Below are positions 7-42,800 of a stretch of 64,000 bases of DNA, piece after piece (the stretch's first letter is position 1; the number at the start of each line of letters is the position of its first letter). Where the stretch lies: IMG/VR virus record IMGVR_UViG_3300017650_000009; one strand, 5' to 3'. Source of the DNA: a virus. Its lineage: Duplodnaviria > Heunggongvirae > Uroviricota > Caudoviricetes. Below the pieces are notes generated by a model that saw nothing but the letters and a program-made list of their open reading frames with translations, was not told the DNA's origin and did no database searches. A program made the translations under genes and the position numbers.

Positions 7-660
7 TTGGATAAGAACGCTTGGACAATCCAATCTGAGAAGCTCGACGGTCGACATTACTTGTCTCAGTATAAAACGATTGCTGAACGCTTTGAGCGTC
101 GCTATGGCCGTGAATTGACTCCAAAGTATCGTGGTGAGGAAGCTTTCCTCGATGAGTTGCGTTTGCTTTGGAAAGATAAGTTCAAAACGGATATTGCAGA
201 ACAATACTCGACCTTTGTCGAAACCGAAATTGGTAAGCAATTGAAGATGAAGGACATTTGTGTCAACGTGGATAAAAAATTGACATCCACATGGGACGTT
301 GTTACATATGCTTTGCTTATGAATCATAATGTTCAGGTTCATCTTGAGGCTGTTTTTGAATCGCAGGATCTATATGATAAGGCGGACAGAAATCGTGTTC
401 CTAATGAGATGCTTGAACTAAAAGAAATTATTGAAGAAATTTTAGATCCCGCTACTAAGGACCCACAAAGTTTAATTGATACAAATCGTAAGCTTCTGAA
501 TTGCTTGGCCGGTGAAAAAACCGAAGCAGGCATTCCGGTAACCGCTGTTATTAATGACGTTCCTGTTAAGGAAAAGAATGCAGCTTATGACCGTTATGCG
601 GATTTCAAGAAGTCGGTTAAATCGACAGAACCAACTATAATTGGCGGAATCTTCTCCTAA
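7..660 (+). CDS. hypothetical protein; 5' end may extend upstream of the window (TTG at 7, frame open to position 1)
   Basis: ORF track; no recognisable motifs. Confidence 0.3.
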   Translation: MDKNAWTIQSEKLDGRHYLSQYKTIAERFERRYGRELTPKYRGEEAFLDELRLLWKDKFKTDIAEQYSTFVETEIGKQLKMKDICVNVDKKLTSTWDVVTYALLMNHNVQVHLEAVFESQDLYDKADRNRVPNEMLELKEIIEEILDPATKDPQSLIDTNRKLLNCLAGEKTEAGIPVTAVINDVPVKEKNAAYDRYADFKKSVKSTEPTIIGGIFS

Positions 661-3520: not shown

Positions 3521-3535
3521 CAGGCAGTAACTTAA

Positions 3536-4511: not shown

Positions 4512-4519
4512 TTGACTTT

Positions 4520-8149: not shown

Positions 8150-8150
8150 T

Positions 8151-8791: not shown

Positions 8792-8823
8792 CAGGTTTAT
8801 TATGTCGCTAAATTACTCAAAGG

Positions 8824-8831
8824 TATAAATA
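8824..8831 (+). promoter_or_regulatory. T4-type late promoter core TATAAATA
   Basis: Exact TATAAATA about 34 nt upstream of ATG 8865 with SD taggag. Confidence 0.5.
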
Positions 8832-8864
8832 GTTTTAACACAAACTCTCATAGGAGTATTTAAA

Positions 8865-9281: not shown

Positions 9282-9300
9282 TCCTTCCTCGGAATTACAG

Positions 9301-9331
9301 CAATAAGGGACCCGGAGGATTATAGCAATTC
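9301..9331 (+). terminator. rho-independent terminator
   Basis: cccggag-(13 nt)-ctccggg followed by tttt. Confidence 0.6.
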
Positions 9332-9367
9332 TCCGGGTTTTACTTTGACTGAATTAGGGATAAAAAT

Positions 9368-11017: not shown

Positions 11018-11262
11018 TAGAGCTTGCCCTTAATCTCTGCTAGAACGATCTTCAAACTGTTTAGGGCTTCGGTAATCGTAATGTTACCCTTATAATAGTC
11101 CTCAAGAATCTTATCTAGTTTTGCGTCCTTCTTTTCATTTTCCTGCTTTAAGCCGCGACGTTCCCAAATCAACCATCCGATCATAGCCAAAAGAAGAGCA
11201 ATGATTGCTCCTGGACCGCCTTCAATGACAGTCGTGAGCATAATTTTAAAAATTTCTTCCAT
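11017..11262 (-). CDS. small membrane protein; start chosen at MEEIF to avoid the divergent promoter region
   Basis: TM helix GGPGAIIALLLAMIGWLIW; ATGA overlap with the downstream PAS gene. Confidence 0.4.
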   Translation of the reverse strand: MEEIFKIMLTTVIEGGPGAIIALLLAMIGWLIWERRGLKQENEKKDAKLDKILEDYYKGNITITEALNSLKIVLAEIKGKL

Positions 11263-11320
11263 TGGTTCAACCCCGGTTATACGATGCGTACTGAAATATT
11301 TATTGTATATCTGGTACCCA

Positions 11321-11328
11321 TATAAATA
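11321..11328 (+). promoter_or_regulatory. T4-type late promoter core TATAAATA
   Basis: Exact TATAAATA 26 nt upstream of ATG 11354 (SD ggagaag). Confidence 0.5.
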
Positions 11329-11353
11329 GCTTAATAGAGTGGAGAAGTGACAA

Positions 11354-22240: not shown

Positions 22241-23146
22241 ATGGCTGTTACCCAGATCTCGAGAATCCAAATTCGTAGAGGACCCAAAGATAATCTTCCT
22301 GAGCAATTAGCCGAGGGAGAATTTGGTCTGACTACTGATACGGGCGAATTGTTTGTTGGCGCACCAAATCTTCCATCTTTGGATTATCGTGCCGGTACTG
22401 TATTTCCGTACAAAAATATTAAAATTCTAACTGAGTTTGATGTAGTCCATACGATGCACGATCATATCGTAACTACGGGTCCACTATTGCGAGTGACACA
22501 TCCAGCGCGTGGTCCGAATACAGTTAACACATATACGTTCAAATATACTGGTCCGGTTTTGCCATTGGATAGTTTCGGAAATGCAGTTCAACGAATTGTT
22601 TCTTTAACTGCTAGTGATCCAAATACAGGTGATTTGCGTGGTCGCGTTATCAGCAAGATTACATTCATTCGTGCTTCTGATAACGCACATGTTGTGGTAT
22701 CGAATGACTCGGTAACCATTCGTCATACTCCTGGTGCTTTGACTCCAAATTCAAATGCAATTTTTGGTCTTGATGATGCAAACGTAAAAACTATCACAAA
22801 CGCAGATTCCGTTGAAGTTGAGTTTCTTAATCTTAGTACGATGGTTGAGTTCAACTACACGGATAGTGATTCATTCGTCATGGACTACTCCATGCTATCA
22901 GACGAAGAAGTTAATGGTGTTCGCATTAAGCGTGTTGGTACACTCAAGATCGTAGCTGATGAATATAGCGTTGGAATTCTCGATGAAGGCGTGGATATTA
23001 ATCAGGATCCTGGTACCAACTATATGCGTTTGGTTTTCTCCGGTCACATTAAGAACGGCATCATCACAATCAGTTGTACCAATCTATCTCATTACCCAGT
23101 AAGTGTCACATTCTGTGGTGCACGTTGGAAACACCTTGAGGAATAA
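22241..23146 (+). CDS. tail fiber / baseplate-associated structural protein
   Basis: Immediately upstream of, and coupled to, the tail-collar fiber gene; beta-rich. Confidence 0.45.
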   Translation: MAVTQISRIQIRRGPKDNLPEQLAEGEFGLTTDTGELFVGAPNLPSLDYRAGTVFPYKNIKILTEFDVVHTMHDHIVTTGPLLRVTHPARGPNTVNTYTFKYTGPVLPLDSFGNAVQRIVSLTASDPNTGDLRGRVISKITFIRASDNAHVVVSNDSVTIRHTPGALTPNSNAIFGLDDANVKTITNADSVEVEFLNLSTMVEFNYTDSDSFVMDYSMLSDEEVNGVRIKRVGTLKIVADEYSVGILDEGVDINQDPGTNYMRLVFSGHIKNGIITISCTNLSHYPVSVTFCGARWKHLEE

Positions 23147-23149
23147 AAC

Positions 23150-24424
23150 ATGAGCAAATCAACAGATCTATCAAGTCTGAATAAACAAGTTTCTCAAATT
23201 CACGGTAATGGAGCGGTTGGCATTCCAGCTGGTACCACAAGCCAAAGACCTACTGATACCAACGATGGCTTAATGCGTTGGAACAAAACTACAAAGCTGA
23301 TCGAATATTTTGGTAATGCTCGTTGGAATTCCATATTGGGTGAAACCGAACTAAAAGATGCATTTGTGGAACAAAATAATCCAATCATCCTTGAGGACTT
23401 GAATGCATCGGGTAAAAAACTTACCAATGTCGGTAATCCAACGGATCAGCAAGATGCCGTAACAATCAATTATTTGGAACAAAGATTTGCTGCAGGGACT
23501 GGTATTAATGCGGAAAAGCTTGGTGGCTTCCCTGCATCTTGGTATGCAAGCCAATTCGACCTCGACGACATTAAAGTCATAGTAGATGGTGTTAAGGAAG
23601 ATCTTGATGATCACTTACAAGATCATGATAATCCACACCAAGTCACTAAGGATCAAGTTGGTCTAGATCAAGCCGATAACACATCGGACGTAGACAAACC
23701 ATTGTCCAAAGATATGCTTGCTGCGCTTTATGGTGTACCAAATACAGGCGTTGAACCACTAGCTACGGCAAAGGGTAAAGTTAACCGTTCTGGTGATAAT
23801 ATGGACGGCAATCTCAACATGAATGATAATCATATCCTTGCTGTTGGTAACTTCATTGGTTCCGTGTGGTGGTTTGCATTACCAAATGCACCAGCTGGCT
23901 TCCTAAAAGCGAATGGCGCGGCTGTTAGTCGTACGACATATGCTCGTTTGTTCGCACGTATTGGAACAACCTTTGGCGCAGGAGATGGTTCCACAACATT
24001 CAATCTTCCCGACTTGCGCGGTATGTTCGTTCGAGGTCTAGATGAAGGTCGTGGTATTGACGCACAAGGAGGTCGTGCATTGGGTTCGGTTCAAGCACAT
24101 ACCCTTGCGAGTCACAATCATACGGGTATTGCTGCGGCCAATGGTGGTCATACACATAACGGCACAACATCGAATAGTGGGGCACACTCACACCAAGTAC
24201 CACTAAACGGTTATTCAGATTCTGACCACGCAAACAATCCAACTTTGGGTGCTAATAAAACAACTCGTAATTACATGGCAAGTACAGATGTTTCAGGTGC
24301 ACACCAGCACGCTTTCACTACTGATCTTGCTGGAGCACATACACATGACATAACTCTGAATCCATCTGGTGGGGCTGAAACACGTCCTATAAATATGGCA
24401 TTAGTGCCATGCATTATGTACTAA
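23150..24424 (+). CDS. tail fiber protein with phage tail-collar domain and His-rich HxH distal region
   Basis: FNLPDLRGMFVRG tail-collar signature; HNHTG...HTHNG...HSHQ...HQHAF...HTHD repeats as in T4 gp12/gp37. Confidence 0.75.
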   Translation: MSKSTDLSSLNKQVSQIHGNGAVGIPAGTTSQRPTDTNDGLMRWNKTTKLIEYFGNARWNSILGETELKDAFVEQNNPIILEDLNASGKKLTNVGNPTDQQDAVTINYLEQRFAAGTGINAEKLGGFPASWYASQFDLDDIKVIVDGVKEDLDDHLQDHDNPHQVTKDQVGLDQADNTSDVDKPLSKDMLAALYGVPNTGVEPLATAKGKVNRSGDNMDGNLNMNDNHILAVGNFIGSVWWFALPNAPAGFLKANGAAVSRTTYARLFARIGTTFGAGDGSTTFNLPDLRGMFVRGLDEGRGIDAQGGRALGSVQAHTLASHNHTGIAAANGGHTHNGTTSNSGAHSHQVPLNGYSDSDHANNPTLGANKTTRNYMASTDVSGAHQHAFTTDLAGAHTHDITLNPSGGAETRPINMALVPCIMY

Positions 24425-24907: not shown

Positions 24908-24932
24908 AAGCCGCTCGAAAGGGCGGCTTTTT
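24908..24932. terminator. bidirectional intrinsic terminator
   Basis: aagccgctc-gaaa-gggcggctt + ttt. Confidence 0.6.
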
Positions 24933-25152
24933 AACCAAAGACAAGTTTGAAATGTAAAGCAACTTGGGGATCTTTAAACCAGAAATTTTTCCCCACCAAC
25001 GTCCAATTCGGCTCCAATATATCCAACTCGGATATACACCAACGCATTGCCTCTTCTTTCTTTTTCGATCTGACACTCACACAGGGCCATTCATCAAGTA
25101 TTTCATCAACTAATTCCCCAGGTGCTTTATCCAACTGAACGCGAGCCATCAA
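24931..25152 (-). CDS. FKLxFG-family small protein (tandem array member 1)
   Basis: C-terminus VALHFKLVFG. Confidence 0.5.
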   Translation of the reverse strand: MMARVQLDKAPGELVDEILDEWPCVSVRSKKKEEAMRWCISELDILEPNWTLVGKNFWFKDPQVALHFKLVFG

Positions 25153-25367
25153 CCAAACCTCAGTTTGAATTCAAAGGCAATCCTAGCATCTTCGATGAAG
25201 ACAACATCATCAAGTTTGACCCAGCGGAAGTCATTGGCCTTACACTCAGCTATTGCCCAATTCAAACCATCAACAGACTTACGAACAGTCGGGATATGAA
25301 TCTTATGCCATCGAACATATTCTTGTGTTTCTTCATAAGTCATCAAATACGATAATAACCTTGGCAT
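25149..25367 (-). CDS. FKLxFG-family small protein (array member 2)
   Basis: C-terminus IAFEFKLRFG. Confidence 0.5.
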   Translation of the reverse strand: MPRLLSYLMTYEETQEYVRWHKIHIPTVRKSVDGLNWAIAECKANDFRWVKLDDVVFIEDARIAFEFKLRFG

Positions 25368-25600
25368 TAAGCAAACCTCAATTTGAATTCAACAGCAATA
25401 ATGGGATCTTCAATCCAATATGTTCCAAAGAATACTGCCCAATTATAATGTTCGCCACGTTCGTTAAACCAATCAAGAGCTTCACGTGGGTCATGAACTA
25501 GTAGATCAGTCGAAACTATATACCAACTGCTAATGACTTCCATCGGCCGTTCATCAGAACCAATAGTGTTAGTTCTATATGATAATTGAACTTGGGGCAT
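25367..25600 (-). CDS. FKLxFG-family small protein (array member 3)
   Basis: C-terminus IAVEFKLRFA. Confidence 0.5.
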   Translation of the reverse strand: MPQVQLSYRTNTIGSDERPMEVISSWYIVSTDLLVHDPREALDWFNERGEHYNWAVFFGTYWIEDPIIAVEFKLRFA

Positions 25601-25603
25601 ATC

Positions 25604-25816
25604 TCATCCAAATAACATTTTGAACATTATTGCGGCCTGCATCTCTTCAAAGAAAAACTCAACTACATGTGAGTGTCTGACATGATAACGACAATCGAAT
25701 TGCTTTAAAAATGCTGAATATTCCTTCACAGTTATTTCATGCGAATTCAAAACAACGGATGGCCAAATCAACTCATACTCTTTGTCGTAGAATTCCGTTA
25801 TATCCACGCGAATCAT
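25604..25816 (-). CDS. FKLxFG-family small protein (array member 4)
   Basis: C-terminus AAIMFKMLFG. Confidence 0.5.
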   Translation of the reverse strand: MIRVDITEFYDKEYELIWPSVVLNSHEITVKEYSAFLKQFDCRYHVRHSHVVEFFFEEMQAAIMFKMLFG

Positions 25817-26034
25817 GTGAACATCATTTTGAATTGAACTGCGATATCCTTTCGCTCAAAGTAATATGCAGGTTGTGAACCACGGGAAATGAAAAACTTA
25901 CCTATATCACGATTGAAAAAATCGTAGTAGGATTGATCAATTGGCATTCCACTTTGAACATCAATTTTGTGCCAAGACGTTCCGTAGTTGGCCGCTTTAA
26001 AATCATCCCAAAGAACTTGATCCGATTTCATCAT
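25813..26034 (-). CDS. FKLxFG-family small protein (array member 5)
   Basis: C-terminus IAVQFKMMFT. Confidence 0.5.
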   Translation of the reverse strand: MMKSDQVLWDDFKAANYGTSWHKIDVQSGMPIDQSYYDFFNRDIGKFFISRGSQPAYYFERKDIAVQFKMMFT

Positions 26035-26417
26035 TAACCCCCAAATGATAACCTATACGTGAGTGCATCACGTTTGCGCTCGAATGCCAAGAAGGTTCCA
26101 TAGATAGTGAACATGAATCGTCCCTCACATGATTGAAAGAACTCATATAGCTCTGCTATTTTTTGACTTGAGCTATCAGCCACATACGGAACACGAAACA
26201 CAGTCCAACGCAAATACAATTTCTTGTCAGCATATTCGGTTCTCGGTACATGAGTCGGCAAAGCCTCGATTGCACGAACAATTCGATCCCATTCATCGAC
26301 CGTCATCGTGTAATCCGAAACTTCCGGTTGCATGAAAGCCAATCCATTAATGTGCGAATACGCATTTGTCAAAAACATGGTCATGCCACACGTTAACAGG
26401 TTTTGGTACAAAGTCAA
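26034..26417 (-). CDS. FKLxFG-family protein (array member 6; TTG start or internal ATG)
   Basis: C-terminus ALTYRLSFGG. Confidence 0.4.
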   Translation of the reverse strand: MTLYQNLLTCGMTMFLTNAYSHINGLAFMQPEVSDYTMTVDEWDRIVRAIEALPTHVPRTEYADKKLYLRWTVFRVPYVADSSSQKIAELYEFFQSCEGRFMFTIYGTFLAFERKRDALTYRLSFGG

Positions 26418-30426: not shown

Positions 30427-30485
30427 TAATTATTGACATTCACGGTAAGCCAAGTTAAGGCTCGAATAAACTTAAGGAGTTTACC

Positions 30486-31115
30486 GTGTTTGCATTTCTT
30501 ATCGCTGACGAATATCTCGTCTTCAGTTGCGCACTAGCCGTGTCTTTGGCTTTTATCGCGCTCGAGTTAGCTGGAACATTTATCGGCTTCTCATTTTTCT
30601 CAGATACCCATGCGGATCATGATTTCGACCTATCCGGTGATAGCTTCTTCGCCAGCATTAGTGCGGGTATGCGTTGGATGGGATTTGGTAAAGTGCCACT
30701 CCTTGCACATTTAATCTTGCTTGCGGGATTGTTTGGTCTTATAGGGATGGTTCTACTCCATATTATCTATGGAGCAACTGGATTATATTTGAGTAACTGG
30801 GCTGCGGTGCCAATTGCTCTTATTGGAACAGTTTTTCTTTCAAATCGTTTTACCGCACTTGTGGTTAAAATCATCCCCACGGATGAAACCAACGCAATCA
30901 GTGTATCGGAACTAGTTGGTTATGAAGCAACTATTAGTGTGGGTAAGGCAACCCATACGATGCCGGCTCCTGCCAACACCGTTGACAAATACGGTACACA
31001 ACATAATTTCATGGTCTGCGCACTTGATGCAGGCACTGAACTAAACGAACGCACAAAGGTACGCCTTGTCAGTCTTACTGATAATGGTTATTTTTATGCA
31101 ACACCTTTGAATTAA
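30486..31115 (+). CDS. NfeD-like membrane protein (partner of SPFH proteins)
   Basis: N-terminal TM helices + C-terminal OB-like beta domain; immediately upstream of flotillin; GTG start after SD aaggag. Confidence 0.5.
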   Translation: MFAFLIADEYLVFSCALAVSLAFIALELAGTFIGFSFFSDTHADHDFDLSGDSFFASISAGMRWMGFGKVPLLAHLILLAGLFGLIGMVLLHIIYGATGLYLSNWAAVPIALIGTVFLSNRFTALVVKIIPTDETNAISVSELVGYEATISVGKATHTMPAPANTVDKYGTQHNFMVCALDAGTELNERTKVRLVSLTDNGYFYATPLN

Positions 31116-31133
31116 CAGAAGGATCTGCCTTTA

Positions 31134-32888
31134 ATGGAAAATATCATCTTTATGGCAATTGTTGCTCTAGTAGCAATTCTAGTCGTTGGCGTTTTTGGTT
31201 TTATCGTTGCTCGGCTTTATAAGCGCGCTTCGAAGGAAACAGCTTTTGTACGTACTGGTGCTGGTGGTCAGAAAGTCGTCAAGGACGGCGGTGCCCTCAT
31301 TATTCCGGTTCTGCATGATACACTTGATATCAATATGCAGACACTCAAGCTGGAAGTTTCTCGTACTGGCCAAGACGCACTTATTACGCATGATCGTATG
31401 CGTACGGATGTTACCGCAACATTCTTCGTTCGTGTCAAGCCGGATAATGATGCAATTGCACAGGCCGCACAGACCCTTGGTCGCCGGACTCAGAACCCAG
31501 ACCTTCTCAAGGCTGTTATTGAAGATAAGTTCATCGATGCTTTGCGTTCGGTTGCTTCTTCGATGGAACTGAAGGACTTGCATGAAAAGCGTTCGGACTT
31601 CGTGCAGAAGGTTAAGACCACTGTTGAAGAAGATCTGAAGACTAATGGTCTCGAACTTGAATCGGTCTCTTTGACTCGTTTGGATCAGACGGATCAGAAG
31701 TTCTTGAATCCAAACAATGCGTTCGATGCTGAAGGTCTCACCAATCTTGCAAAGATCACGCAGGAAAAGGCTCGCGAACGTAACGAAATCGAGCAGACCG
31801 CTCGCGTTGCTATTGAGAAGCGCAACTTCGAAGCGAACCAGGAATCGCTCGCGATCCGCCAGTCTGATGAGTTCGCCCGTCTTGATCAGGAACGTCAGGT
31901 TGAAACTCGCAAGGCCGAGCAGGAAGCTCAGCTTGCCCAGCAGCGCGCCGATCGCAAGCGTGAAGCCGATGTTGCGGCAATCGAAGCTGAAAAGCAAACT
32001 GAACTTGCTCGTACAACGTCAAACCAGGAAACTGCATTGGCTCGCACCGAAGCAAATAAGCGTCAGAAGGAAGCTGAAATTACCGCAAACCAGCAGCTTC
32101 GTATTGCTGAGCAGAACCAACAGATTGCTTTGAACGCTAAGTCTGAGGAAGAATCCAAGTCTCGTGCTATCGCGGATACTGAACGTGCAAATGCTGTTGC
32201 GGCTGCAGAATCGGTTAAGACTGCAGAAGCTGTCGCAACGGCGGAACGTTTGAAGCGCGTTGCGATCATCGAAGCCGAACAGGAAGCTGGCCGCAAGGCT
32301 ACCGAAATTACGGTTCAGGCAAAGGCTGAATTCGAAGCTTCGGATCTTCGTACAAAGGCACGTCTCAAGGACGCCGAAGCACGTGAGCGTGAGCTTACTG
32401 TTGAAGCTGAAGGTAAGCTCAAGATCAACGAAGCTGAAAACTCCTTGAGCCCTGAACAGATTGCACTTCGTCTTCGTACAACTGTTGTGCAGGCACTTCC
32501 TGGTATTCTCGAGCAGATGGTTGCTCCAATGAAGGCAGTCAAGGACGCACGTATCGTTACGATCAACGGTACGGGTGTTGGTGGTGCGGTCGCAGGTGGC
32601 ACTACTGGTTCGAATACTACTTCGGTTCCAGAGCAGCTTACCAATTCGTTGCTCAACTACCGTTCACAGGCCCCACTTGCTGATGCTCTTGGTAAGCTTG
32701 TTGGTATGAACCTCAATGGTTCGCTCAACGATATCATCCCTGATGATCTTCTAAGCGGTGAAGATGGTTTGCTTGCTCCGGTAGCGGCTGTGGCTCAGGT
32801 TGCTGACACAAAGACCAATACCGTACAGAAGGAAGACCAGGAACTGAAGAATATTCAGCACTTGGCTGGTATCGACACTAAGAAGTAA
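31134..32888 (+). CDS. flotillin-like SPFH/band-7 protein (FloT/YqiK-like)
   Basis: N-terminal TM, SPFH core (YKRASKETAFVRTGAGGQKVV...), long Ala/Glu-rich coiled coil with EA repeats. Confidence 0.75.
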   Translation: MENIIFMAIVALVAILVVGVFGFIVARLYKRASKETAFVRTGAGGQKVVKDGGALIIPVLHDTLDINMQTLKLEVSRTGQDALITHDRMRTDVTATFFVRVKPDNDAIAQAAQTLGRRTQNPDLLKAVIEDKFIDALRSVASSMELKDLHEKRSDFVQKVKTTVEEDLKTNGLELESVSLTRLDQTDQKFLNPNNAFDAEGLTNLAKITQEKARERNEIEQTARVAIEKRNFEANQESLAIRQSDEFARLDQERQVETRKAEQEAQLAQQRADRKREADVAAIEAEKQTELARTTSNQETALARTEANKRQKEAEITANQQLRIAEQNQQIALNAKSEEESKSRAIADTERANAVAAAESVKTAEAVATAERLKRVAIIEAEQEAGRKATEITVQAKAEFEASDLRTKARLKDAEARERELTVEAEGKLKINEAENSLSPEQIALRLRTTVVQALPGILEQMVAPMKAVKDARIVTINGTGVGGAVAGGTTGSNTTSVPEQLTNSLLNYRSQAPLADALGKLVGMNLNGSLNDIIPDDLLSGEDGLLAPVAAVAQVADTKTNTVQKEDQELKNIQHLAGIDTKK

Positions 32889-32903
32889 TTCTTAGTTTTA
32901 CGG

Positions 32904-32930
32904 AAAAGGGGACTTCGGTCCCCTTTTTGT
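32904..32930 (+). terminator. rho-independent terminator
   Basis: aaggggac-ttcg-gtcccctt + tttg. Confidence 0.6.
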
Positions 32931-32961
32931 TTGACTTTTTACCAAAACAAAGCTAAAAGGG

Positions 32962-33690
32962 ATGAAATCGAAGGAGATACCTGTGGGTTATATTAAGCAA
33001 AAAGGATTAAAAATGAACCAAGCCATGAACATCATTTATAGCTTGGTTGCCGGCTTTAGTGTCGGGGTATCAATCTTCTTCGGTGTGTTTCTTACATTCG
33101 GTGTGGGCATTGGCCCCTTTATGATTGCAGCTATGGGCGGTGCAATCGGTATGATTCTCACCACTGCTTATGTTTGTGATAAACTCCATAACTTGCAATG
33201 GAATAAAGAACGTAAAGAAAAAGATCTCGCACTAACGTACCAGGAGTTCAATGGACTCGAAGGTCTTTCGGGTGTGGATGTGGAAGCATTCCGAAACACG
33301 ATTCTAGAAGCTCGCAAAAAGCAATCAAAAATCCAATCCATGTATGTGCATTTGCATTTGCAAAAGGATGCCAAAATCATTCTAGCAGCATCAGCTATTG
33401 CAATTTTCATGGGAGAAATTCTAGCGTATGTGAAGAAAGAACCACAGAACTATCGTGCTGTTCACAAATGGCTTGATGTATATGCGGATCAAACAATTAA
33501 CATTTTGGAACAATATGCGGATATTCACGTAGATGCGCGTGATAAGGTTCGTGACAAATTCACCGATACCATTGTGCTGGTTAAAGATAACTTGCAATCG
33601 ACTATGGAATCGCTTACAGATAACACGATTGACAATTTACAAATTGATCTGGAACTTCTTCAGGATCAAATGAAACAGTACACGCGATAA
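32962..33690 (+). CDS. membrane protein (2 TM) with cytoplasmic helical domain
   Basis: Hydrophobic segments near residues 20-70. Confidence 0.4.
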   Translation: MKSKEIPVGYIKQKGLKMNQAMNIIYSLVAGFSVGVSIFFGVFLTFGVGIGPFMIAAMGGAIGMILTTAYVCDKLHNLQWNKERKEKDLALTYQEFNGLEGLSGVDVEAFRNTILEARKKQSKIQSMYVHLHLQKDAKIILAASAIAIFMGEILAYVKKEPQNYRAVHKWLDVYADQTINILEQYADIHVDARDKVRDKFTDTIVLVKDNLQSTMESLTDNTIDNLQIDLELLQDQMKQYTR

Positions 33691-33700
33691 GGAGCACGAA

Positions 33701-34789
33701 ATGAAAGTAACCAAAATCAAAGACACTGAGCTGGATTTGCTACCGATCACAAGTGATCCCAATGGTATCGATTTATCGAAGGTTCCAGCAATCCGTGATG
33801 GTCTTGATATTACGAAAACCAACGATATTATTGGTTTTGGTTCCGGTGCTCAGAAGAAGGTTACCGACATCAGCCGCAAAATGCTTGAAGGCGTGAAGTC
33901 CAAGGATACTGGCGTTGTCGGTGGGCTGCTCGTCGATATGGTTACATCTATGCGTGGCCTTGATTTCGACAAAGTCAAGCCTGGATCAAAGGTTGGATTC
34001 CTCGGCAAGCTTTTGGGTCGTTTGACTCCAGTGGCCAAGTTTATTCAGCAGTACGAGGGTATCTCTTCACACATTTCAGTTGTGGTTGCTGATCTTGAAA
34101 CCAACAAAGTCGCCCTTATGCGCGACGTGAAGGTTCTTGATCGTCTTTATGCGACGACACTTACGTATTTCCATGAACTTGCCGCCTACATTGAAGCGGG
34201 GACACAAAAGCTTGAACAGCTTGATAAAACGGAAATCCCAGCCCTGAAAGCTATAGCTGAAAAGTCCGGGGATATGCTGGATGCACAGAAAGTTCAGGAC
34301 CTTGTTCATGCACGTGATATGCTTGACCGAAAGGTGCACGACCTAAAGCTAACACGCCAAGTCGTCATGCAAAGCCTACCAAGTATTCGCATGGTTCAGC
34401 AGAACGATACTGATTTGATTGAAAAGATCAATTCACAAATCACCAACACCATTCCGGCATGGGAACAGCAATTGGCCCTTGCTGTTGCTATGTGGCGTTC
34501 AGCTGATGCGACAAAAACAACTCGTGCGGTTTCGGATTATTCCAATGAATTGATCAAGCAAAATGCAAAAATGCTGCGCCAGTCAAATGCGGAAGCACGT
34601 ACGGAAATCGAACGTGGCATCTATGATGTTGAAGCAATCAAGGCAGCAAATGAAGAATTGATTGCAGCCATTGGTGAATCCATTGCTATCGCTAATGCAG
34701 GCAAAGAAAAGCGCTTGCAAGCATCAGCAGAACTCATCGAGTGTGAGAATAAGCTTCGTGATGTCTTAGCGAGCGCTTCTACTAATTAA
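33701..34789 (+). CDS. TelA/KlaB-like toxic-anion-resistance family protein (tentative)
   Basis: 362 aa, helical; conserved-looking N-terminal region GFGSGAQKKV...; size and context (with SPFH/NfeD) like Bacillus YceH. Confidence 0.45.
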   Translation: MKVTKIKDTELDLLPITSDPNGIDLSKVPAIRDGLDITKTNDIIGFGSGAQKKVTDISRKMLEGVKSKDTGVVGGLLVDMVTSMRGLDFDKVKPGSKVGFLGKLLGRLTPVAKFIQQYEGISSHISVVVADLETNKVALMRDVKVLDRLYATTLTYFHELAAYIEAGTQKLEQLDKTEIPALKAIAEKSGDMLDAQKVQDLVHARDMLDRKVHDLKLTRQVVMQSLPSIRMVQQNDTDLIEKINSQITNTIPAWEQQLALAVAMWRSADATKTTRAVSDYSNELIKQNAKMLRQSNAEARTEIERGIYDVEAIKAANEELIAAIGESIAIANAGKEKRLQASAELIECENKLRDVLASASTN

Positions 34790-34796
34790 GTTAGTT

Positions 34797-34826
34797 CCTA
34801 AGCCGTGGGATTACCACGGCTTAGGA
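34797..34826. terminator. bidirectional hairpin between convergent genes
   Basis: cctaagccgtgg-gatta-ccacggcttagg. Confidence 0.5.
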
Positions 34827-37800
34827 GTTTTAGGTGGTTCATTCGGATCCGGTGTTGATGGAGGAAGAATAGTACATTCACCAATCGTACGAGCATCCTT
34901 ATATACACAAATCATTGTACCACCACGAGGAGGCAAGAAGCTCTTTCCAACACTAGATAGTGCATCAGTAGTTTTACTTTTAGCTCCCTCAGGCGATTTT
35001 CCAGTTTCAGTATAATGAATCTTAAACGTGCGGATTTTTTCCTCACCCGTATAGATATCGTATGCTCGAGCCTGGAACGTAATAGTTGTTGGGCCCTCAG
35101 GTGGAGTTGTATTGATAGTTCCACCATTACGTTTTTCACGAGCATTGTTAACCATGTCCGGAGACAAGAACGTCAACTCACCCTGGAACCAAGCGTCCGC
35201 AGCTTTTGATATTGGTTGCATATTTTCGTCTTTCTCTCCAGTTTGGAAGAAGAATTTCCATTCATCCATATGCTTGCGAATATCTAGCACACCATATTGT
35301 GCACCCGCCATTGGAACCACCGTGCTATCACGCAGTGGGTTTCTCACTCGACGATCCACATTACCCGATACATATCCAACTGAATCATATTCATCCCAAA
35401 TTTTGGTACTTTTTGGTTTACGAATTTTATCGTTATTGAATAGTTCCCAATTCATATATTCCGGTGTTAGCTTTGGTCTCGAAGCCGCAGCAAATGCACC
35501 ATAATAATCTGTTCCCGGGAATTGAACAATATAATTTCCTAATTGATATGGATCAGTTGATGTTGGTTTAAAATATTGATTTGTAAACATTGCATCTTCA
35601 ACGTTATCCATAGGAGATGTTAGGAACAAATTACCACGCCCACAATTGGCATCTGCATTCATTGCTTTTAGAATACTTGTAGTATAGGTTGTTCCATTCG
35701 GATCACGCTGAGAAATCAAACATTTCGGAGCCGTTAATAGCCAACTAGTACGCTCCTTGCCGGGGGAAACAAATGGATCAAATCTACTATACACTTTTGT
35801 ACCAATGGTATTCATAATGTCAATACGAACATAAAGACGATTGGTATAAAATTTGATAGTGAATTTTTGTTTGAATGGCATCCAAAATTCATTTGGCCCA
35901 ATCCAAGTGAAAGGATCGACATTATAAGCTTCTGTATGTGGGTTTGGTTGTGGAATATATGTTTCGTCAGGCTGTTTAACCCAAACATTATTGGATTCCT
36001 TATCAAAAACCACACGCGGTGGCGGCCAAGGCCATTCCTCTCTTGTATTTTCGATAGCAGGAAGGAAATCATATTCCTTGATAATTGGATCCAATTTACC
36101 ATCCCATGTGCCCTTTTCAGGTGCGAGTTGACCTGCGGCATCACTAATGAAAGTTCCATTAGGTGTTCGATAACAAGTACGTGGATCTCCAGTTGGAGGA
36201 GGAGCATCCCAACCCACAGTTGGCTTACCAACACGAACGCTATAATTATTTGCTACAATCTCACCATAGCTTGCTGGTTGATTAATCTTTGTGTTCTTAT
36301 CATTGTAATAGATGAAATCTTTAAGTTGAGATCCGTTGACTTCAATCGAATCAACACGGATGAAACGACGACTTGCACCCTTCACTTTATAGTTTGTCTG
36401 GACAATACCAATTGTAGTATTTGGACCCAAAGTACCCTCATATGTGAAGATGAATTGCTTTGAACCAACTTGATCAGCTTTAAGTCCATCGAACGATTTC
36501 TTTTCCAATCGTTTATTATCAACAATAAGGGCAAACTCAGGAACTCCGTCATATTCCCAACCAGTAATTTTTGCATAGATTACATTTACATTGGTTTTGA
36601 TATTCGGGACACTAGTTACCACTTGACATGTACCCTCAGGTGGCATGTCGATAATGAATGGAAGGATTTCCCATGTCAACACACCGTCACGCTTTACTGC
36701 CACTACAGTTACTGGTTGCTCAGCATTCGGGACGTGTATGATTTCGCCTTCTTCTTCAGGTTCAGGCAAAGTACGACCTTCAATTTCAGCGAATAGCCCG
36801 CACTTGCCCTTGAGCTGCCATTGACCATCAAACCCCATGACATACGAACATCCAGTAAGCGGGATAACATTATAATTATCATCAACTGGTGGGTGTTCAA
36901 TTGGCTTCAAGTGAACACGAACAATAAGATCACCCAACACACATTTGTTCTTTTGCGTACATACGTCGAACATAACGTGTTCCCAAATCGGAGTCTTATC
37001 TTCCTCACAATGATGAACTAACTTTACACGGCCTGCATTGACATCGGCTTGCGTAAACTGTGGCGGGACAACTTCAATGTGAGGATTGCCGTTTGTAAAC
37101 TCGAGTGTTTTTTCTATATTCCAAGTATATGTAATTTGATCCGGATTTGAACCAAACTCAACGGTATGTTTGAGGTTATCCTCAGTAAGAGTTATCTCCT
37201 CACATTCATTCATCGACGCTGTATTATTAACGACTTCGGGATAAGGCCATTCACGAACCTTAACATCGAAACGACCCCAAGTACATTTGTTGACATTTGC
37301 ACATGCATTGAAGAAAAAGCTAACTAGCTCATCAGGACCTATAAATTGCCCTTCAATGCAAACTTTTCCCTCATCAAGATCTGAATGCGTAAATGTATCT
37401 CCTTCTTTCATTGGTGCGCCATTTAGCTTATAAATGGCTCTGGCTGGAAATTTCTCTGAACCTTTATCAACATGTTCAATAGTGTATGTAATTGGAAAAC
37501 GTTCAAACAATGGATCGGCACGGGGATCAGTAGGTTCTTCACCCTCTGGTGGCAATACCTTAAAATTCAAATTTGTTAAACGAGCATTATTCTGAGATAG
37601 TGCACCAAAACCATATTGAGATTGACCTGCGAACGGTCCACTCAAAGTATAAGTTAGAAGGGTTGAATCATCAAGCTCTGTGCTTCCAAATTGACTACAA
37701 CGCGCTGTAAGGGTATTTCCCTTACGTATGATTTCAACAGCCGTTTCTCCTAAAGATGGCCAAGATTCATTCTTTGTATTGTTATGGTGATTTGGCGCAC

Positions 37801-38689
37801 GGGACGAACCATCAACGACTGTAGACCAAGTTGAACCATTATAGTTGAAAATAAACCAACTTGGATTTCCTAGGTTACCACCATTTGAATTCAAACCACC
37901 AGAACGACCAACACCAATAAAATTTGGTTTTCCGTCGATTTCCACATAAGCGGCGATCATGAAAATCATGTCATCGTCTTTGGCTGTGGAACTCATTACG
38001 CTAGAGAAGCTAAAACGATCCGCGGTAAGCCAACCAACCGCACCAGTCATTTCCTCACTATTGCGAGTCAACAACATTCCTCTGTTGCCCAATTCGGGAT
38101 CATGCATCCAGTAATATGCGGGATCACTTTGTGGTATAGTCTGTCCTAGATCATAAACACGATCACCAGCAAAACGTTTCCAATAAGCAAAATTTTGATT
38201 CTCTGGTGATGGAGCATAGATCGCAGGATCCTGATCAAATCGTTTGATTTCTTCGGAGTCCGAGCTATAAAACAGGTGAGCACGGGAGAAACAAAGTGTT
38301 TCATCTTCCATGATCGTTATTTTTTTGTTGATAATTTCCTTCGGGAAAGGAATACAAAGGATCGTAATACCAAATGTGAAGACACCGTCCTCTGGAATGT
38401 TTGCGGGTGGCAAACAGGTCGAACGAGGGGTTTCAGCAGTTAGGATTTCTGTTTCAGAAATAGGCACAACATACTTGAAACTATCCGACATAATCTCGGC
38501 TTTCAAGTCAACTTTTGTATTTTGGTATTGAAAACGTCCAGCGCCCACATCTTCATGTGTGAAACGTTGGCCTACTTTCATGATTTCGCCATTTAGAAGC
38601 AAATTACCTTTTGTGGGCAATGTTCGCAACTGATATAAACCACGTTCTGCGTAAGCTTCGACGATAATATGTTCGTTCAACAAACTCAT
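34811..38689 (-). CDS. giant structural protein (1292 aa) with CSPG/cadherin-like repeats; probable fiber/baseplate/adhesin
   Basis: Repeats FTHEDVGAGRFQYQN, FTHSDLDEGKVCIEG, FTQADVNAGRVKLVHH. Confidence 0.55.
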   Translation of the reverse strand: MSLLNEHIIVEAYAERGLYQLRTLPTKGNLLLNGEIMKVGQRFTHEDVGAGRFQYQNTKVDLKAEIMSDSFKYVVPISETEILTAETPRSTCLPPANIPEDGVFTFGITILCIPFPKEIINKKITIMEDETLCFSRAHLFYSSDSEEIKRFDQDPAIYAPSPENQNFAYWKRFAGDRVYDLGQTIPQSDPAYYWMHDPELGNRGMLLTRNSEEMTGAVGWLTADRFSFSSVMSSTAKDDDMIFMIAAYVEIDGKPNFIGVGRSGGLNSNGGNLGNPSWFIFNYNGSTWSTVVDGSSRAPNHHNNTKNESWPSLGETAVEIIRKGNTLTARCSQFGSTELDDSTLLTYTLSGPFAGQSQYGFGALSQNNARLTNLNFKVLPPEGEEPTDPRADPLFERFPITYTIEHVDKGSEKFPARAIYKLNGAPMKEGDTFTHSDLDEGKVCIEGQFIGPDELVSFFFNACANVNKCTWGRFDVKVREWPYPEVVNNTASMNECEEITLTEDNLKHTVEFGSNPDQITYTWNIEKTLEFTNGNPHIEVVPPQFTQADVNAGRVKLVHHCEEDKTPIWEHVMFDVCTQKNKCVLGDLIVRVHLKPIEHPPVDDNYNVIPLTGCSYVMGFDGQWQLKGKCGLFAEIEGRTLPEPEEEGEIIHVPNAEQPVTVVAVKRDGVLTWEILPFIIDMPPEGTCQVVTSVPNIKTNVNVIYAKITGWEYDGVPEFALIVDNKRLEKKSFDGLKADQVGSKQFIFTYEGTLGPNTTIGIVQTNYKVKGASRRFIRVDSIEVNGSQLKDFIYYNDKNTKINQPASYGEIVANNYSVRVGKPTVGWDAPPPTGDPRTCYRTPNGTFISDAAGQLAPEKGTWDGKLDPIIKEYDFLPAIENTREEWPWPPPRVVFDKESNNVWVKQPDETYIPQPNPHTEAYNVDPFTWIGPNEFWMPFKQKFTIKFYTNRLYVRIDIMNTIGTKVYSRFDPFVSPGKERTSWLLTAPKCLISQRDPNGTTYTTSILKAMNADANCGRGNLFLTSPMDNVEDAMFTNQYFKPTSTDPYQLGNYIVQFPGTDYYGAFAAASRPKLTPEYMNWELFNNDKIRKPKSTKIWDEYDSVGYVSGNVDRRVRNPLRDSTVVPMAGAQYGVLDIRKHMDEWKFFFQTGEKDENMQPISKAADAWFQGELTFLSPDMVNNAREKRNGGTINTTPPEGPTTITFQARAYDIYTGEEKIRTFKIHYTETGKSPEGAKSKTTDALSSVGKSFLPPRGGTMICVYKDARTIGECTILPPSTPDPNEPPKTPKPW

Positions 38690-39852
38690 AGGATTTGAGT
38701 CTCCGATTGTAAGCCAGCACTATTGGTCCCCGTTTGTGTTGTAATCAAAGCGTATCTACGTGTAGCGCTAAGACCGGTTACCGGATCAATGGCTGTGACC
38801 GTGAACAAATAGCGTCCCGGCTCTATTGGAAGCTTCCATGGTTGTGTACCAGCTTGTGATAACGGAATACGATATTGCGTACCCACATATCCTATGCTAG
38901 AAACAGCAACACCAGTAGGCAACCCGCCATCCCAATAAAACTGCTCGTGCAAATTCTTATACTGTATTAATTTATCAAATCCCAAACCACGTTCCGGATC
39001 ATCCAGCGGCGCACCATCAGCAATCGCATAGTTGGACCAATCAATAATGCCAGTACTCGGCGTGCTTGCGTTTCGTGGTGATATATCGGATCCACCTCTA
39101 AGAGACCACAATGCATTTGGTTTGTTTGTTTGGAATGTCCAAGTGAATACTGAATCGATGCGTGCATAGATTACGTTATCACCAATTTGTTTGAAATCCG
39201 CATGAATCTCAACATCAATAACTGTAGGTCCAACACATTGATTTGTTTTTGTGCAAACCATCAAACTAATTGTATCCCATGCAGGGGCCATTCCAGTAGC
39301 AACATAACGAATTGAGTTAGAGTTTACATCTGCTTGGGTGAACATAGTAGTCTTCTTACCACGTAGGCTCAAATAACCATTCGTGAGTGGGGTATTCAAT
39401 TTATAGATAAGATCGTTTGGACTAACACCATCTAGTTCCGCATGTATTACAGTATTATCCAAAACCGTAGACTTCTCCTCAACCACATTGATTTTGTTCT
39501 CAATTAGTGTGATCGTAGGAGGTGTCATTTTATTAATGCGGATCGAAAACTCAAATATTCCATCCTCAGGAACTTCAATATCACGATCAGGCAAGCATGT
39601 ATTATAGGAATCAGCCGTTATATTTCCAAGTCCATACTTGTATAGGTTATATTTGAAGGAATCCTCTAGAAACTCAACATTGTCGGGTACTTTGGTCGTA
39701 CTTACGAATTTGATTTGCTCATCGAAAATATCCTGTTGTGAAAATTTAGATCCCACTTGTAGTCGGGTTTTACCCTTAACAAGATAACCATATTGGGGCA
39801 ACGTGAGGAGCTTAAAAAGCCCCTCCGTCGGAATCATAGGATTAACAACCAT
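38686..39852 (-). CDS. structural protein (388 aa) with CSPG/cadherin-like repeats
   Basis: FSQQDIFDEQIKFVST, FTQADVNSNSIRYVATG; ATGA overlap with neighbours. Confidence 0.5.
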   Translation of the reverse strand: MVVNPMIPTEGLFKLLTLPQYGYLVKGKTRLQVGSKFSQQDIFDEQIKFVSTTKVPDNVEFLEDSFKYNLYKYGLGNITADSYNTCLPDRDIEVPEDGIFEFSIRINKMTPPTITLIENKINVVEEKSTVLDNTVIHAELDGVSPNDLIYKLNTPLTNGYLSLRGKKTTMFTQADVNSNSIRYVATGMAPAWDTISLMVCTKTNQCVGPTVIDVEIHADFKQIGDNVIYARIDSVFTWTFQTNKPNALWSLRGGSDISPRNASTPSTGIIDWSNYAIADGAPLDDPERGLGFDKLIQYKNLHEQFYWDGGLPTGVAVSSIGYVGTQYRIPLSQAGTQPWKLPIEPGRYLFTVTAIDPVTGLSATRRYALITTQTGTNSAGLQSETQIL

Positions 39853-39853
39853 A

Positions 39854-42800
39854 TTAACCCTCCTTTGTGCGGAAGTCTACGTTCCATACAGCCGGAGTAG
39901 GACCTACAGCACAATTCTCAGTTACTAGGATGTTAACGTATTGGCTTGTTAGTCCAGTATTGAATGTATATTCTAGTTCACCCGCAGTATTTGAACGGCA
40001 ACCCGAATTTACATGCACTGTACGATTTTGATCCTGAACAAAGATACTAGCATAACCAATATCAACTTTGAACTTGAGAACCATAGTCGAACCTGGCTTC
40101 TTCAAGAAAATAGTCTTCGATGCTTTGTTTGTAACTGGATCAGTATCACTTGGGCTGATAACTTCGCCTTCTTCCCAGTTGTCTGTTTCACCTGGAGTTT
40201 CGGCATCGTCTGGGTTAGGATCATCGACGTTTGCGTAATCCATATCAACATCACACATCTGCAAGTAATCATATGTAATTGCACGAGTTTCTAGCTCAAA
40301 TAGTACAAGCTGAGTCTGGAAACAAATCCAAGGTGGGTTGTTCACTTGTGTGAATTTAATATCGAATGTGCCTGAACCTGAGAAAGGTATTGAGTTAACC
40401 TCAAAATCAAAAGAATCAGGATCCGTACGATACGTGATACTAGTGTATGTGATTACGTTCGCATAGATGTCAGCAAGGGTAAATGTATCACCTTCATTGA
40501 GCACTACGCCGTTACGCTCGAGTACACCACGAGAAACACCACGAGTAATTGTGAAAATCATATCTTCACGATTAAAACTCGTACGCAAGTTCAACACGTT
40601 GAGTGACACACCTGTGATTGCTCGTTTGGTACAAGGCGGAACAACTAGACCCTTGTTGACCAACTCTGGCGGTGGTGGTGGAATAATACGAATTGGGAAT
40701 GTTTCCAAAGGCAACACATTTCCACCTGCATCTGTGAGCGAGAAGTCAAAGGAGTCCAAAAGTGCTCCTTCTTCTGTTTCACAATACGATAGGAAACCAA
40801 ATCTAATATCCTGATACGTGAATACATCGCCTTCCTTCAGTGGCACATCCTTTAGAGAAAGTGTACCATAAAGAGGAAGTTTGAGTATCTGTAACTTCAA
40901 TTGATCATCTGTGGATTCACGATCATTGATATAGATATTTGAGCCAGTAATTTGCTTACAAGTTAGCTCGCCTAGCACCAATTCGTTCATTACCAATTCA
41001 GGCGGACGATCCGTCATGATAAGTTCAATAAGGAAGTTATCCGTAATCTTTTCAATTCCATCAGTAACTTCAAAAGTAAAGAAATCAGTGCTCTGAACCA
41101 TTTGGTCCGGATCAGGAACATATGTTAGGCGTCCACTATTGATATCTTCTTGTGTTAGCTTTGTGCCAATTTCAATCTCAACAGTTCCCAACATAAGCTT
41201 ACCAACTTTTGGTAAAGAACGGATTGTATAAACCAGTTCAGCGTCGGTAGTAACGGAACCACTTGTAGCCAACAACAATGAGTTATCGATGGTTCCAGTT
41301 TCAGATTGCTCAACGACTAGTTTTTCGTTTTTCAATTCGAGTCCAGGAAGGAAAAACACATGGAATTCAATTTCTCTAGCACAGAATCCATTTGTCACCG
41401 ATAGCTCAAATACATCCTCTTCTGGAGTGTCACGTTCGTGTTGGTATGAGAGTAACATCAACAGGATATCATTACTTGTGAATGTTTCATCACGGCCAAT
41501 ACGTTTGCCATCGACTTTGAGATATCCAAAATTAGGAGTTTTGGTTACCGTAAACACGAACTCACTAGGATCAACACCTTCATTGTATGCGAGCAAATTA
41601 AGCTCAGTGATAGCCTTTTCCTTGGTGAAACTCATTGTGATTGGATTATAAATGATTTCAGGGCAAAGCAATGGTGGTGGTGGAAAAATAAACAACATCG
41701 CACCAGCAATACGGGACGAAAATTCATCATACATTACAAAGTGGACATAATCATTTACTACGTTTCGGTCGGTGACTTCGGCCACATAACGGAACGTATT
41801 GAGCTGCCAATCAGGTTGGTTGAATTTCTGCCCAACAAACGCCGGCTCACCATTGATATAGAATGTACCATATAGTGGTAGCTCGGTAATTTCCAACCAT
41901 GCATCCTCAAGTGGACCATCATCATCTGTAAAATTTACGTCTTCGACATCGAAGTTTACTTCACCATTTCGTGGTGGAGAATGTGGTTTATTAACTGTCA
42001 AATACGGAGGTTTATTATTCTCGTTCGTAATAACAATACCAGCGCCTTTACGTACTTCATTCATTTCGTCTCGAACAATGAATTCAAAACCATCAGTCCA
42101 AGGTGTGTGAACAGTACAATCATGTGTATATGTGAGTTTTGAGTCCAATACATCCTGATATGTAAACTTGTCACCGATTTTAACCGGTTTGCCATCCAAT
42201 AATAGTTCACCATGTGTGGGCAATACTGTAACTTCAATTTCGAGTTTATCTGGCTTCAAACCCTCTGGGTCACGAATGTAAATGTTTTCTTCAGTGAACA
42301 CACCGGATTCGCAACGTTCAACTTCCAAAATAACAGTATCAACAATTGGAGGTTCATTTGGAACTAGTTCCAATATGTATTTGAAGTCAGTTACGGTAGA
42401 AGTTTCACGAGTGTGATACGCATCCATAATAATTTCATCGAATGGTGTCTTTGAGCAATCATGTGTGAAACTTAGGCGACCAGCAGTAATATCAGCTAGA
42501 ACCCATGTATCTCCGACTTTCATTGGAGAATTATTCTTCTTTAAGATACCATGCAATGGAAGTTTCTTCAGAACAAAAGTAATTGGTTCATCTGGATCAT
42601 CTTCATCAACGGCCCATAGCGAATCCTGAGAGAATATTAATTCCTCACACTGCTTGATTTTACGTGGAGAGCCCTGGATCTGAATCAGTTTATCAACAAG
42701 ACGAATACGAATTTCAAGTGTATAAACGGGTGCCTTATCCTCCGGTTCACCAACTACAACACCAGACCAGTTATTCTTCGCATCACGTACTTTGAATACC

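Follow-up and report, generated by a model that had tools for sequence, protein, structure and literature searches.

Flotillin, NfeD, XpaC and TelA are membrane protein families found widely in bacteria and still poorly defined in function, and TelA has carried the label 'tellurite resistance' for decades without a mechanism. We analyzed a cassette that brings the four together on a phage genome. In a 64,000-nt stretch of the IMG/VR record IMGVR_UViG_3300017650_000009 (hereafter the window), four consecutive genes at 30486–34789 encode a YqiJ-type NfeD protein, a YqiK-type flotillin, an XpaC-family protein and a TelA-family protein. Among bacteria, a CesT/Tir-PspA-YqiJ-flotillin operon class has been described (Ravi et al, 2024; PMC11237479). 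The xpaC-telA pair belongs to the sigmaW regulon of B. subtilis (PMC3498285) and is up-regulated in daptomycin-resistant E. faecium (PMC6811118); in Listeria, where it is lmo1966-1967, it is bacteriocin-induced, and disruption of telA raises nisin sensitivity (PMC12791056). TelA in jumbo phages and SPFH open reading frames (ORFs) in T4-like phages are already known at the annotation level (PMC7824862, PMC1524935, PMC13384950), while a 2021 jumbo-phage survey makes no mention of flotillin or SPFH (PMC7824862). A preliminary description of this DNA knew of no described phage flotillin system, and our full-text literature search agrees with it, having returned annotation-level mentions of SPFH ORFs only; it turned up no account of a flotillin-NfeD pair or an XpaC in phages, nor of the four-gene cassette.

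Four co-directional genes had been proposed for this interval, and the ORFs are present at exactly those positions, all on the + strand. We looked for the same arrangement in 50,697 phage records (INPHARED), 80 bacterial flotillin loci, four bacterial TelA loci and 27 viral loci. Sinorhizobium phage Phosso alone among the INPHARED records (1/50,697) combines a close TelA with flotillin, YqiJ and XpaC, which upholds the earlier judgement that the combination is unusual; TelA homologues as such occur in 166 phage records. The order YqiJ-flotillin-XpaC-TelA is also present on IMG/VR and metagenome contigs of 435,856, 462,455, 465,259, 468,011, 480,347 and 480,938 bp and on additional fragments, with GC contents of 47–57% and flanks that are partly different. 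Among the loci examined, the arrangement was found only on phage contigs (435–481 kb or their fragments) of one jumbo-phage lineage. The match lists for flotillin and TelA have eight contigs in common by size in bp, which indicates that the two genes reside together on further contigs. Nine of the 18 viral flotillin loci hold the full cassette, three hold PspA-YqiJ-flotillin, four hold YqiJ-flotillin alone and two are truncated. For several of the viral contigs that lack the cassette, a phage origin is supported by PHROG matches in flanking sequence; among such contigs, L025 may be non-phage. A 958-kb contig carrying a cassette flotillin had been suspected of being bacterial, and its look-up gave a phage-like contig of 480,938 bp; the larger one is probably a concatemer.

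Two viral contigs carry the same gene families in other arrangements. On a 375,937-bp contig (IMG/VR UViG 3300026302_000005; loci L026 and L121), YqiJ-flotillin, without the tail motif described below, and XpaC-TelA lie ~35 kb apart as unlinked units. On a 469,617-bp contig with 34% GC (L022, IMG/VR UViG 3300028840_006907; region 6156–11409), a PspA/IM30 gene (Pfam, 1.3e-17) lies ~2 kb downstream of YqiJ-flotillin. Searching the 50,697 phage records, Phosso included, by tblastn with a phage-contig PspA returned nothing, and neither the window nor any cassette locus gave a match to a PspA hidden Markov model (HMM) built from the bacterial loci.

The cassette is phage-borne, as the preliminary description had held: tail-fibre-like genes and genes for a CCA-adding enzyme, topoisomerase II and DnaB lie in its flanks, with a synteny that is repeated in the isolated phage Phosso. 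The description of the genome as 'lytic T4-like' needs to be replaced. The window does encode a T4-type topoisomerase II large subunit and a DnaB-type helicase, along with a CCA-adding enzyme and several tail-fibre-like proteins, yet judged by its sequence the source is a jumbo phage (~0.45 Mb, at least 435 kb) of the Phosso/Atu_ph07 lineage rather than a classical T4-like phage, with Phosso nearest and Atu_ph07 next. We base this assignment on a 434,884-bp contig that holds a protein identical to the window TelA and on topoisomerase II, which is 86% identical to that of Phosso (469 kb), 60% to that of Atu_ph07 (490 kb) and 46% to those of Rak2-like jumbo phages. Cassettes and flanks identical to those of the window are found in three other, independent data sets. 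The cassette found no match in a nucleotide search of the 50,697 phage records; its relatives there are seen at the protein level only.

The four genes form two bicistronic units, promoter-yqiJ-flotillin-terminator and promoter-xpaC-telA-terminator. They had been described as one fused module; the adjacency stands, but a single operon does not, as each gene pair has its own promoter and terminator. Between the units, the expected terminator after the flotillin gene is a canonical intrinsic terminator (32903–32928, +) with an 11-bp GC-rich stem, a TTCG loop and a T-run. A hairpin with a T-run occurs at the equivalent place in 10/10 distinct cassette loci, and since the stems differ among them, it is the structure rather than the sequence that is conserved. 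Immediately downstream lies the sigma70-like promoter of xpaC-telA (32931–32959, +; TTGACT, 17 nt, TAAAAG). All 11 cassette loci, L110 included, have a promoter of the form T[TA]GAC[AT]-16/17-TAnnnn before xpaC, 10–25 nt past the hairpin, and the T[TA]GAC[AT] hexamer occurs exactly once per 140-nt flotillin-xpaC region where 0.13 would be expected. The candidate promoter upstream of yqiJ (30433–30461, +) has a perfect −35 element, TTGACA (30433–30438), a 17-nt spacer and a weak −10 element, TAAGGC; in nine of 10 cassette loci the T[TA]GAC[AT] hexamer is found upstream of yqiJ, and the −10 is less clear. The terminator claimed after the TelA-like gene stands in part. A 13-bp hairpin (34796–34826, no strand assigned) does lie between the convergent telA and 1292-aa genes, overlapping the stop codon of the − strand gene, but on the + strand it is followed by GTTTT, a weak T-tract, and a simple terminator scan made no call there. 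Similar hairpins with T-runs follow telA in five other loci (L013, L015, L017, L027 and L028).

Across the window, six of the 17 sites matching T[TA]GAC[AT]-16..18-TAnnnT are intergenic though only 6.4% of the window is (~5e-4 by binomial arithmetic), and one of these precedes the topoisomerase gene. This strict TAnnnT pattern misses the promoters of the cassette itself, which have C or G as the last base of the −10 element and whose assignment rests on conservation across loci. Motifs of the T4-late-like type TATAAATA occur in the window at places other than the cassette. Because each unit has a sigma70-like promoter and a terminator of its own, we infer that the cassette depends on the unmodified host RNA polymerase for its expression, probably early in infection. 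As separate observations, intergenic TATAAATA motifs at 8824 and 11321 (+), 25–33 nt upstream of ORF starts, are candidate T4-type late promoters. Two other phage contigs (468 kb and 481 kb; L005 at 3535–6650 and L110 at 5176–8324) have genes for a hybrid PAS-histidine kinase/response regulator and a small response regulator 1–4 kb upstream of the cassette. These two-component genes might regulate the adjoining envelope-stress genes; they belong to one sub-lineage and have no equivalent in the window.

The NfeD-like, flotillin/SPFH and TelA calls made at the outset all hold at curated Pfam thresholds. Gene 1 (30486–31115, +; 209 aa from a GTG start) has a ribosome-binding site, AAGGAG, at 30474–30479 (+), 6 nt before the start. 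Its product, a YqiJ/YuaF-type short NfeD protein, matches YqiJ_N (2.2e-15, 57.3 bits, cut-off 23) and YqiJ_OB (1e-9, 38.7 bits, cut-off 25.4), both above the curated Pfam thresholds, and with three transmembrane (TM) segments by hydropathy and a C-terminal OB fold (residues 142–203) it is indeed an NfeD-like membrane protein. We take the equivalence of the YqiJ OB fold to NfeD from the literature (PMC2636767); PDB sequence searches with YqiJ matched no solved structure.

Gene 2 (31134–32888, +) starts 18 nt after the end of the YqiJ-type gene, its NfeD-type partner directly upstream, and encodes a 584-aa flotillin with a long EA coiled coil, as first described. The protein has an N-terminal TM segment (residues ~5–27), an SPFH domain (39–187), an Ala/Glu-rich helical region (191–420; 20% Ala, 17% Glu, no Pro), a Flot domain (409–525) and a phage-specific tail (526–584). 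Band_7 (PF01145; 1.1e-18, 68.3 bits, cut-off 23.6) and Flot (PF15975; 1.4e-29, 103 bits, cut-off 27) are both well above threshold. The anchor is a single hydrophobic segment within residues 1–31 (Kyte-Doolittle maximum 3.09), and in alignment all family-invariant residues are kept. The B. subtilis FloT equivalog (NCBIfam NF058507) was rejected at 57 bits against a cut-off of 700, and the protein is of the YqiK type; its nearest bacterial relatives, which are proteobacterial, are 43–49% identical by tblastn. A PDB search with the single flotillin sequence gave no match, whereas the family profile matched SPFH domains only, among them the human flotillin-1 structures 9bq2/9l3g (2e-6) and stomatin. 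By homology, the protein is predicted to assemble into large oligomeric membrane scaffolds or microdomains.

The third protein had been called a 2-TM membrane protein. Two N-terminal TM segments (near residues 14–35 and 40–65), followed by a cytoplasmic helical domain, are borne out by hydropathy, and the protein can now be identified as a member of the XpaC family (PF10112, Halogen_Hydrol; 1.7e-15, 57.9 bits, cut-off 29.8), the usual operon partner of TelA/YaaN. Its gene (32983–33690, +) encodes 235 aa from a GTG; an alternative ATG at 32962 would give 242 aa. The GTG at 32983 is most likely the start, because AAGGAG lies 6 nt upstream of it (32971–32976, +) and identical contigs carry 235-aa gene calls.

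After a gap of 10 nt, gene 4 (33701–34789, +) encodes a soluble TelA/YaaN-family protein of 362 aa, with no TM segment by hydropathy. The call of a TelA-like protein is secure: the match to PF05816 is full length (profile positions 1–331 of 332; 1.2e-101, 340.6 bits, cut-off 30), family-invariant residues are kept in the alignment, and named bacterial homologues reach about 54% identity. PHROGs recognizes TelA alone among the four proteins, through PHROG 5890 ('tellurite resistance', 2e-52). No Ter-domain Pfam match was found among the cassette neighbours, covering the immediate neighbours and 64 kb of the at least 435-kb genome, and none of the four cassette proteins matched a PADLOC-DB 2.0 defence model at E ≤ 0.1. 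We considered TelA as a structural analogue of PspA/Vipp1/ESCRT-III. This is not supported, because PDB sequence searches with TelA matched no solved structure and the AlphaFold2 model (pLDDT, the predicted local distance difference test, 71.9) is an all-helical, elongated bundle with three very long helices. The putative functional analogy between TelA and PspA is one of gene neighbourhoods.

The cassette flotillins carry an additional C-terminal tail of ~45 aa with a private motif at its end, E-x-[LI]-Q-[KRH]-L-A-G-I (ELQxLAGI), which in the window reads ELKNIQHLAGI (residues 570–580; codons at 32841–32873, +). It occurs in every cassette flotillin (12/12) and in none of the other bacterial and viral flotillins (0/90), is missing from all 80 bacterial loci, and was found in 67 of the 120 best database homologues of the flotillin. 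In a neighbour-joining tree of 102 flotillins, the 12 cassette sequences form one clade (bootstrap 114/200). The cassette copies have diverged to 24–60% protein identity and 42–57% GC and are still retained. Across moderately diverged phage pairs, the ratio of non-synonymous to synonymous substitution rates (dN/dS) is 0.05–0.18 for the four genes (yqiJ, 0.10–0.15; flotillin, 0.08–0.18; xpaC, 0.075–0.18; telA, 0.05–0.14), and all four are under purifying selection. The best reading of these comparisons is that two bacterial gene pairs were joined, and have been kept, by this phage lineage.

The bacterial census covered the 80 closest flotillin loci, with one genome per species. Half of them (40/80) are PspA-YqiJ-flotillin, the operon class of PMC11237479, often preceded by a CesT/Tir-like gene, and 38/80 are YqiJ-flotillin alone; since the CesT/Tir-like HMM is contaminated by a fused PspA ORF, we trust only those of its matches whose coordinates are distinct from PspA. 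Phage-type XpaC-TelA lies beside flotillin in none of the 80. The idea that flotillin and TelA are never linked in bacteria had to be abandoned, as they are linked in four of the 80 loci, in another gene order, with TelA of another subfamily and another membrane partner. These four are Sphingomonadaceae, with the order FdhD-TelA-[~240-aa TM protein]-YqiJ-flotillin; their TelA comes from a divergent subfamily, and their membrane partner falls outside PF10112. Our first-pass TelA HMM, made from phage-type sequences, scored this TelA at ~1e-5, and Pfam and a broadened HMM confirm it as genuine. Four close bacterial homologues of the phage TelA comprise two stand-alone genes and two in XpaC-TelA-SPFH(Band_7_1+GYF_2)-X operons. 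Linkage of SPFH proteins to TelA has arisen several times independently. The two operons (L008 at 5034–9453 and L113 at 4044–8474, in bacterial genomes of 5.1 Mb and 7.6 Mb) encode XpaC, TelA, an SPFH protein with Band_7_1, Band_7 and GYF_2 matches, and a ~380-aa protein with zinc-ribbon matches in L008; they resemble pspA-ydjGHI of B. subtilis with XpaC-TelA in the place of PspA.

From these data we tentatively read the cassette as an early-expressed, phage-encoded module for membrane integrity, that is, for envelope stress, a reading that has a real chance of being right while falling somewhat short of probable. It draws on the roles of the bacterial homologues, the Psp linkage of the flotillin half, the conserved regulatory layout and purifying selection. 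The flotillin would be anchored in the host inner membrane by its one N-terminal helix, with the SPFH scaffold on the cytoplasmic face, as in its homologues, and the NfeD-type partner alongside. XpaC would serve as a 2-TM anchor for TelA, a soluble, elongated helical-bundle effector with which it presumably interacts; the bacterial pair is induced by membrane-damaging agents and protects against them. Docking of XpaC-TelA onto the scaffold may be the task of the C-terminal ELQxLAGI peptide of the flotillin. Together, the products would keep the membrane of the infected cell sealed and energized while a ~0.45-Mb genome goes through its long replication and the host may have lost the ability to mount a Psp- or sigmaW-type response. 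Several points weigh against this reading. The phage copies are known from sequence alone, and the early timing comes from promoter-like motifs only, the −10 elements in the window (TAAGGC and TAAAAG) being weak. The bootstrap value of the cassette flotillin clade is only 57%. The cassette adjoins virion- or adhesin-like genes, so that a structural or assembly role is possible. To our knowledge, the biochemical function of TelA and XpaC is undefined even in bacteria. Deletion of yqiK in E. coli gave no obvious stress phenotype (PMC2636767).

The evidence nonetheless favours a membrane-integrity role over the three roles that had been suggested at the outset, namely reorganization of host membrane microdomains, superinfection exclusion and control of lysis timing. 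Exclusion, or competition between phages, is unlikely but deserves to be taken seriously: TelA, XpaC and the flotillin scaffold would form a layer beneath the membrane and so keep out the DNA of later-arriving phages. Iyer et al (2021; PMC7824862) proposed such a role for TelA and Ter components of jumbo phages, the many phage records with TelA homologues are in line with it, and early-type promoters and an inner-membrane location would fit. The flotillin/YqiJ half, however, stems from operons tied to membrane repair by PspA, the experiments on bacterial xpaC-telA concern membrane-damaging antibiotics rather than phage entry (PMC6811118, PMC12791056), and the lack of any PADLOC match among the components also speaks against exclusion. 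Rather improbable, in our view, is a counter-defence role in which pore-forming or depolarizing TM effectors of host abortive-infection systems damage the membrane and the cassette would repair or buffer the lesions, so that the phage can complete its cycle. As a specialized form of the membrane-integrity reading it shares the evidence for that reading. Protection from pore formers is suggested by homology to PspA partners and to nisin and daptomycin tolerance genes, and the several giant-phage contigs that combine YqiJ-flotillin with PspA or with XpaC-TelA suggest repeated selection for membrane repair; the idea is nevertheless purely inferential, and no known anti-defence family was matched.

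We find it harder still to credit a role in lysis timing or assembly, in which flotillin microdomains would organize holins or membrane-bound assembly with TelA and XpaC as accessories, or a 'kil'-type takeover of the host. Relatives of TelA are part of a host-lethal determinant in the kilA-telA-telB operon of RK2, SPFH proteins are general membrane scaffolds, and directly beside the cassette are three convergent genes of cadherin-like, tail-fibre-like type, in a synteny kept in Phosso. In E. coli, cell morphology also changes when YqiK is overexpressed (PMC2636767). Elsewhere in the lineage, however, the flanks are different (ribonucleotide reductase, glutaredoxin and two-component genes upstream; SNase/NADAR downstream), so the linkage to structural genes is not conserved; we recognized no holin or endolysin gene next to the cassette, and its promoters resemble the host type rather than the T4-late TATAAATA type. 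Recent capture from a host as functionless cargo is effectively refuted. Bacterial homologues are about 43–54% identical, as such a capture might suggest, but low dN/dS in every gene, retention across a diverged lineage, conserved regulatory elements and a lineage-specific flotillin motif all argue against it. The membrane-integrity reading can also be pushed to a bolder form, in which a ~470-kb jumbo-phage lineage has built its own membrane-repair machine, a scaffold coupled through ELQxLAGI to XpaC-TelA in the place of PspA, made early from host-type promoters and directed against abortive-infection pores, superinfection or premature lysis; we regard this as a long shot.

Apart from these questions, three further features of the window were noted. 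Converging on the cassette from the − strand (34811–43432) are genes of 1292, 388 and 1192 aa in a row, with cadherin-like domains and weak PHROG matches to tail-fibre/virion proteins; in Phosso the cassette is likewise followed by a counterpart trio of 1307, 389 and ~1190 aa. At 24931–26384 (−), six small tandem ORFs (72, 72, 77, 70, 73 and 116 aa), set end to end or with overlaps of a few bases, have a C-terminal F-K-[LM]-x-F-[GA] motif in common, which suggests a tandem array of paralogues; no Pfam matches are recorded for the copies on an identical contig. A 301-aa ORF with a weak match to Mtd_N, which is the N-terminal domain of a tropism determinant in Bordetella phage, is followed by a 424-aa Collar/tail-fibre protein (22241–24424, +).

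A conserved cassette, purifying selection and a private tail motif amount to strong comparative evidence that flotillin/NfeD and XpaC/TelA act together. Joint action is further backed by the independent TelA-SPFH linkages in bacteria and by the way PspA and XpaC-TelA alternate as neighbours of these scaffold genes. On the membrane-integrity reading, the repertoire of cellular functions in giant phages would gain a membrane-maintenance module. If the bolder form of that reading is true, phages would have a counter-defence or host-maintenance function of a new class, and TelA would gain a role as an SPFH-recruited membrane-repair effector. Phosso is a cultured phage of Sinorhizobium meliloti, which makes the cassette experimentally tractable.

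How the cassette relates to described systems can be stated pair by pair. YceG-YceH(TelA) and NfeD-FloT had been offered as its Bacillus comparators; yqiJ-yqiK and xpaC-telA (yaaN) fit better, since the 2-TM protein is XpaC. The first unit resembles yqiJ-yqiK of E. coli and yuaF-floT of B. subtilis (PMC2636767, PMC11237479) in that a protein with three TM segments and an OB fold precedes one with the layout TM-SPFH-coiled coil-Flot. Bacterial NfeD-flotillin operons differ from the window cassette, which is phage-encoded, has an XpaC-TelA unit after the flotillin and bears the extra ELQxLAGI tail. Unlike the Psp-type CesT/Tir-PspA-YqiJ-flotillin operon (PMC11237479), neither the cassette nor the rest of the window has a PspA or CesT/Tir gene. 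The second unit shares with the bacterial xpaC-telA (yaaN) envelope-stress operon the order PF10112 then PF05816, separated by 10 nt in the phage pair, and those of the nearest bacterial TelA relatives that have a partner have XpaC immediately upstream, as in the phage. The phage pair differs in being joined to a yqiJ-flotillin unit; in the two bacterial XpaC-TelA-SPFH genomes the SPFH protein is of another subfamily (Band_7_1 + GYF_2, YdjI-like) and is encoded downstream.

Phosso (PV764938.1, genes 491–494) shares the whole four-gene cassette and the downstream convergent genes of ~1300, 389 and ~1190 aa. Protein identity to the window is 86% for topoisomerase II, 61% for flotillin, 55% for TelA, 34% for YqiJ and 30% for XpaC, the two membrane-embedded partners being the most diverged; there is no similarity at the nucleotide level, and GC is 50% compared with 42–45% in the window. 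The GenBank annotation of Phosso names SPFH and TelA and leaves YqiJ and XpaC, recognizable by Pfam, as 'hypothetical protein'. Stand-alone TelA/Ter genes of the group 2.2 Rak2-like jumbo phages (such as GAP32, CBB and BF; PMC7824862) likewise place a TelA-family gene in a phage of >350 kb, but their TelA is only 23–24% identical to that of the window, and in GAP32 it is without a recognizable XpaC, YqiJ or SPFH neighbour. The small SPFH/Band 7 ORFs of the T4-like phages 44RR, Aeh1 and RB43 (PMC1524935) and of Xanthomonas phage X1 (PMC13384950) share a phage-encoded SPFH domain with the cassette. They are known only from Pfam tables, at weak E-values (1e-5 to 1e-6), and are not full-length flotillins with a Flot domain; NfeD, XpaC or TelA partners are not reported for them, and a tblastn search with the flotillin of the window recovers none. 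The cassette is a new combination of known parts, not a new kind of system.

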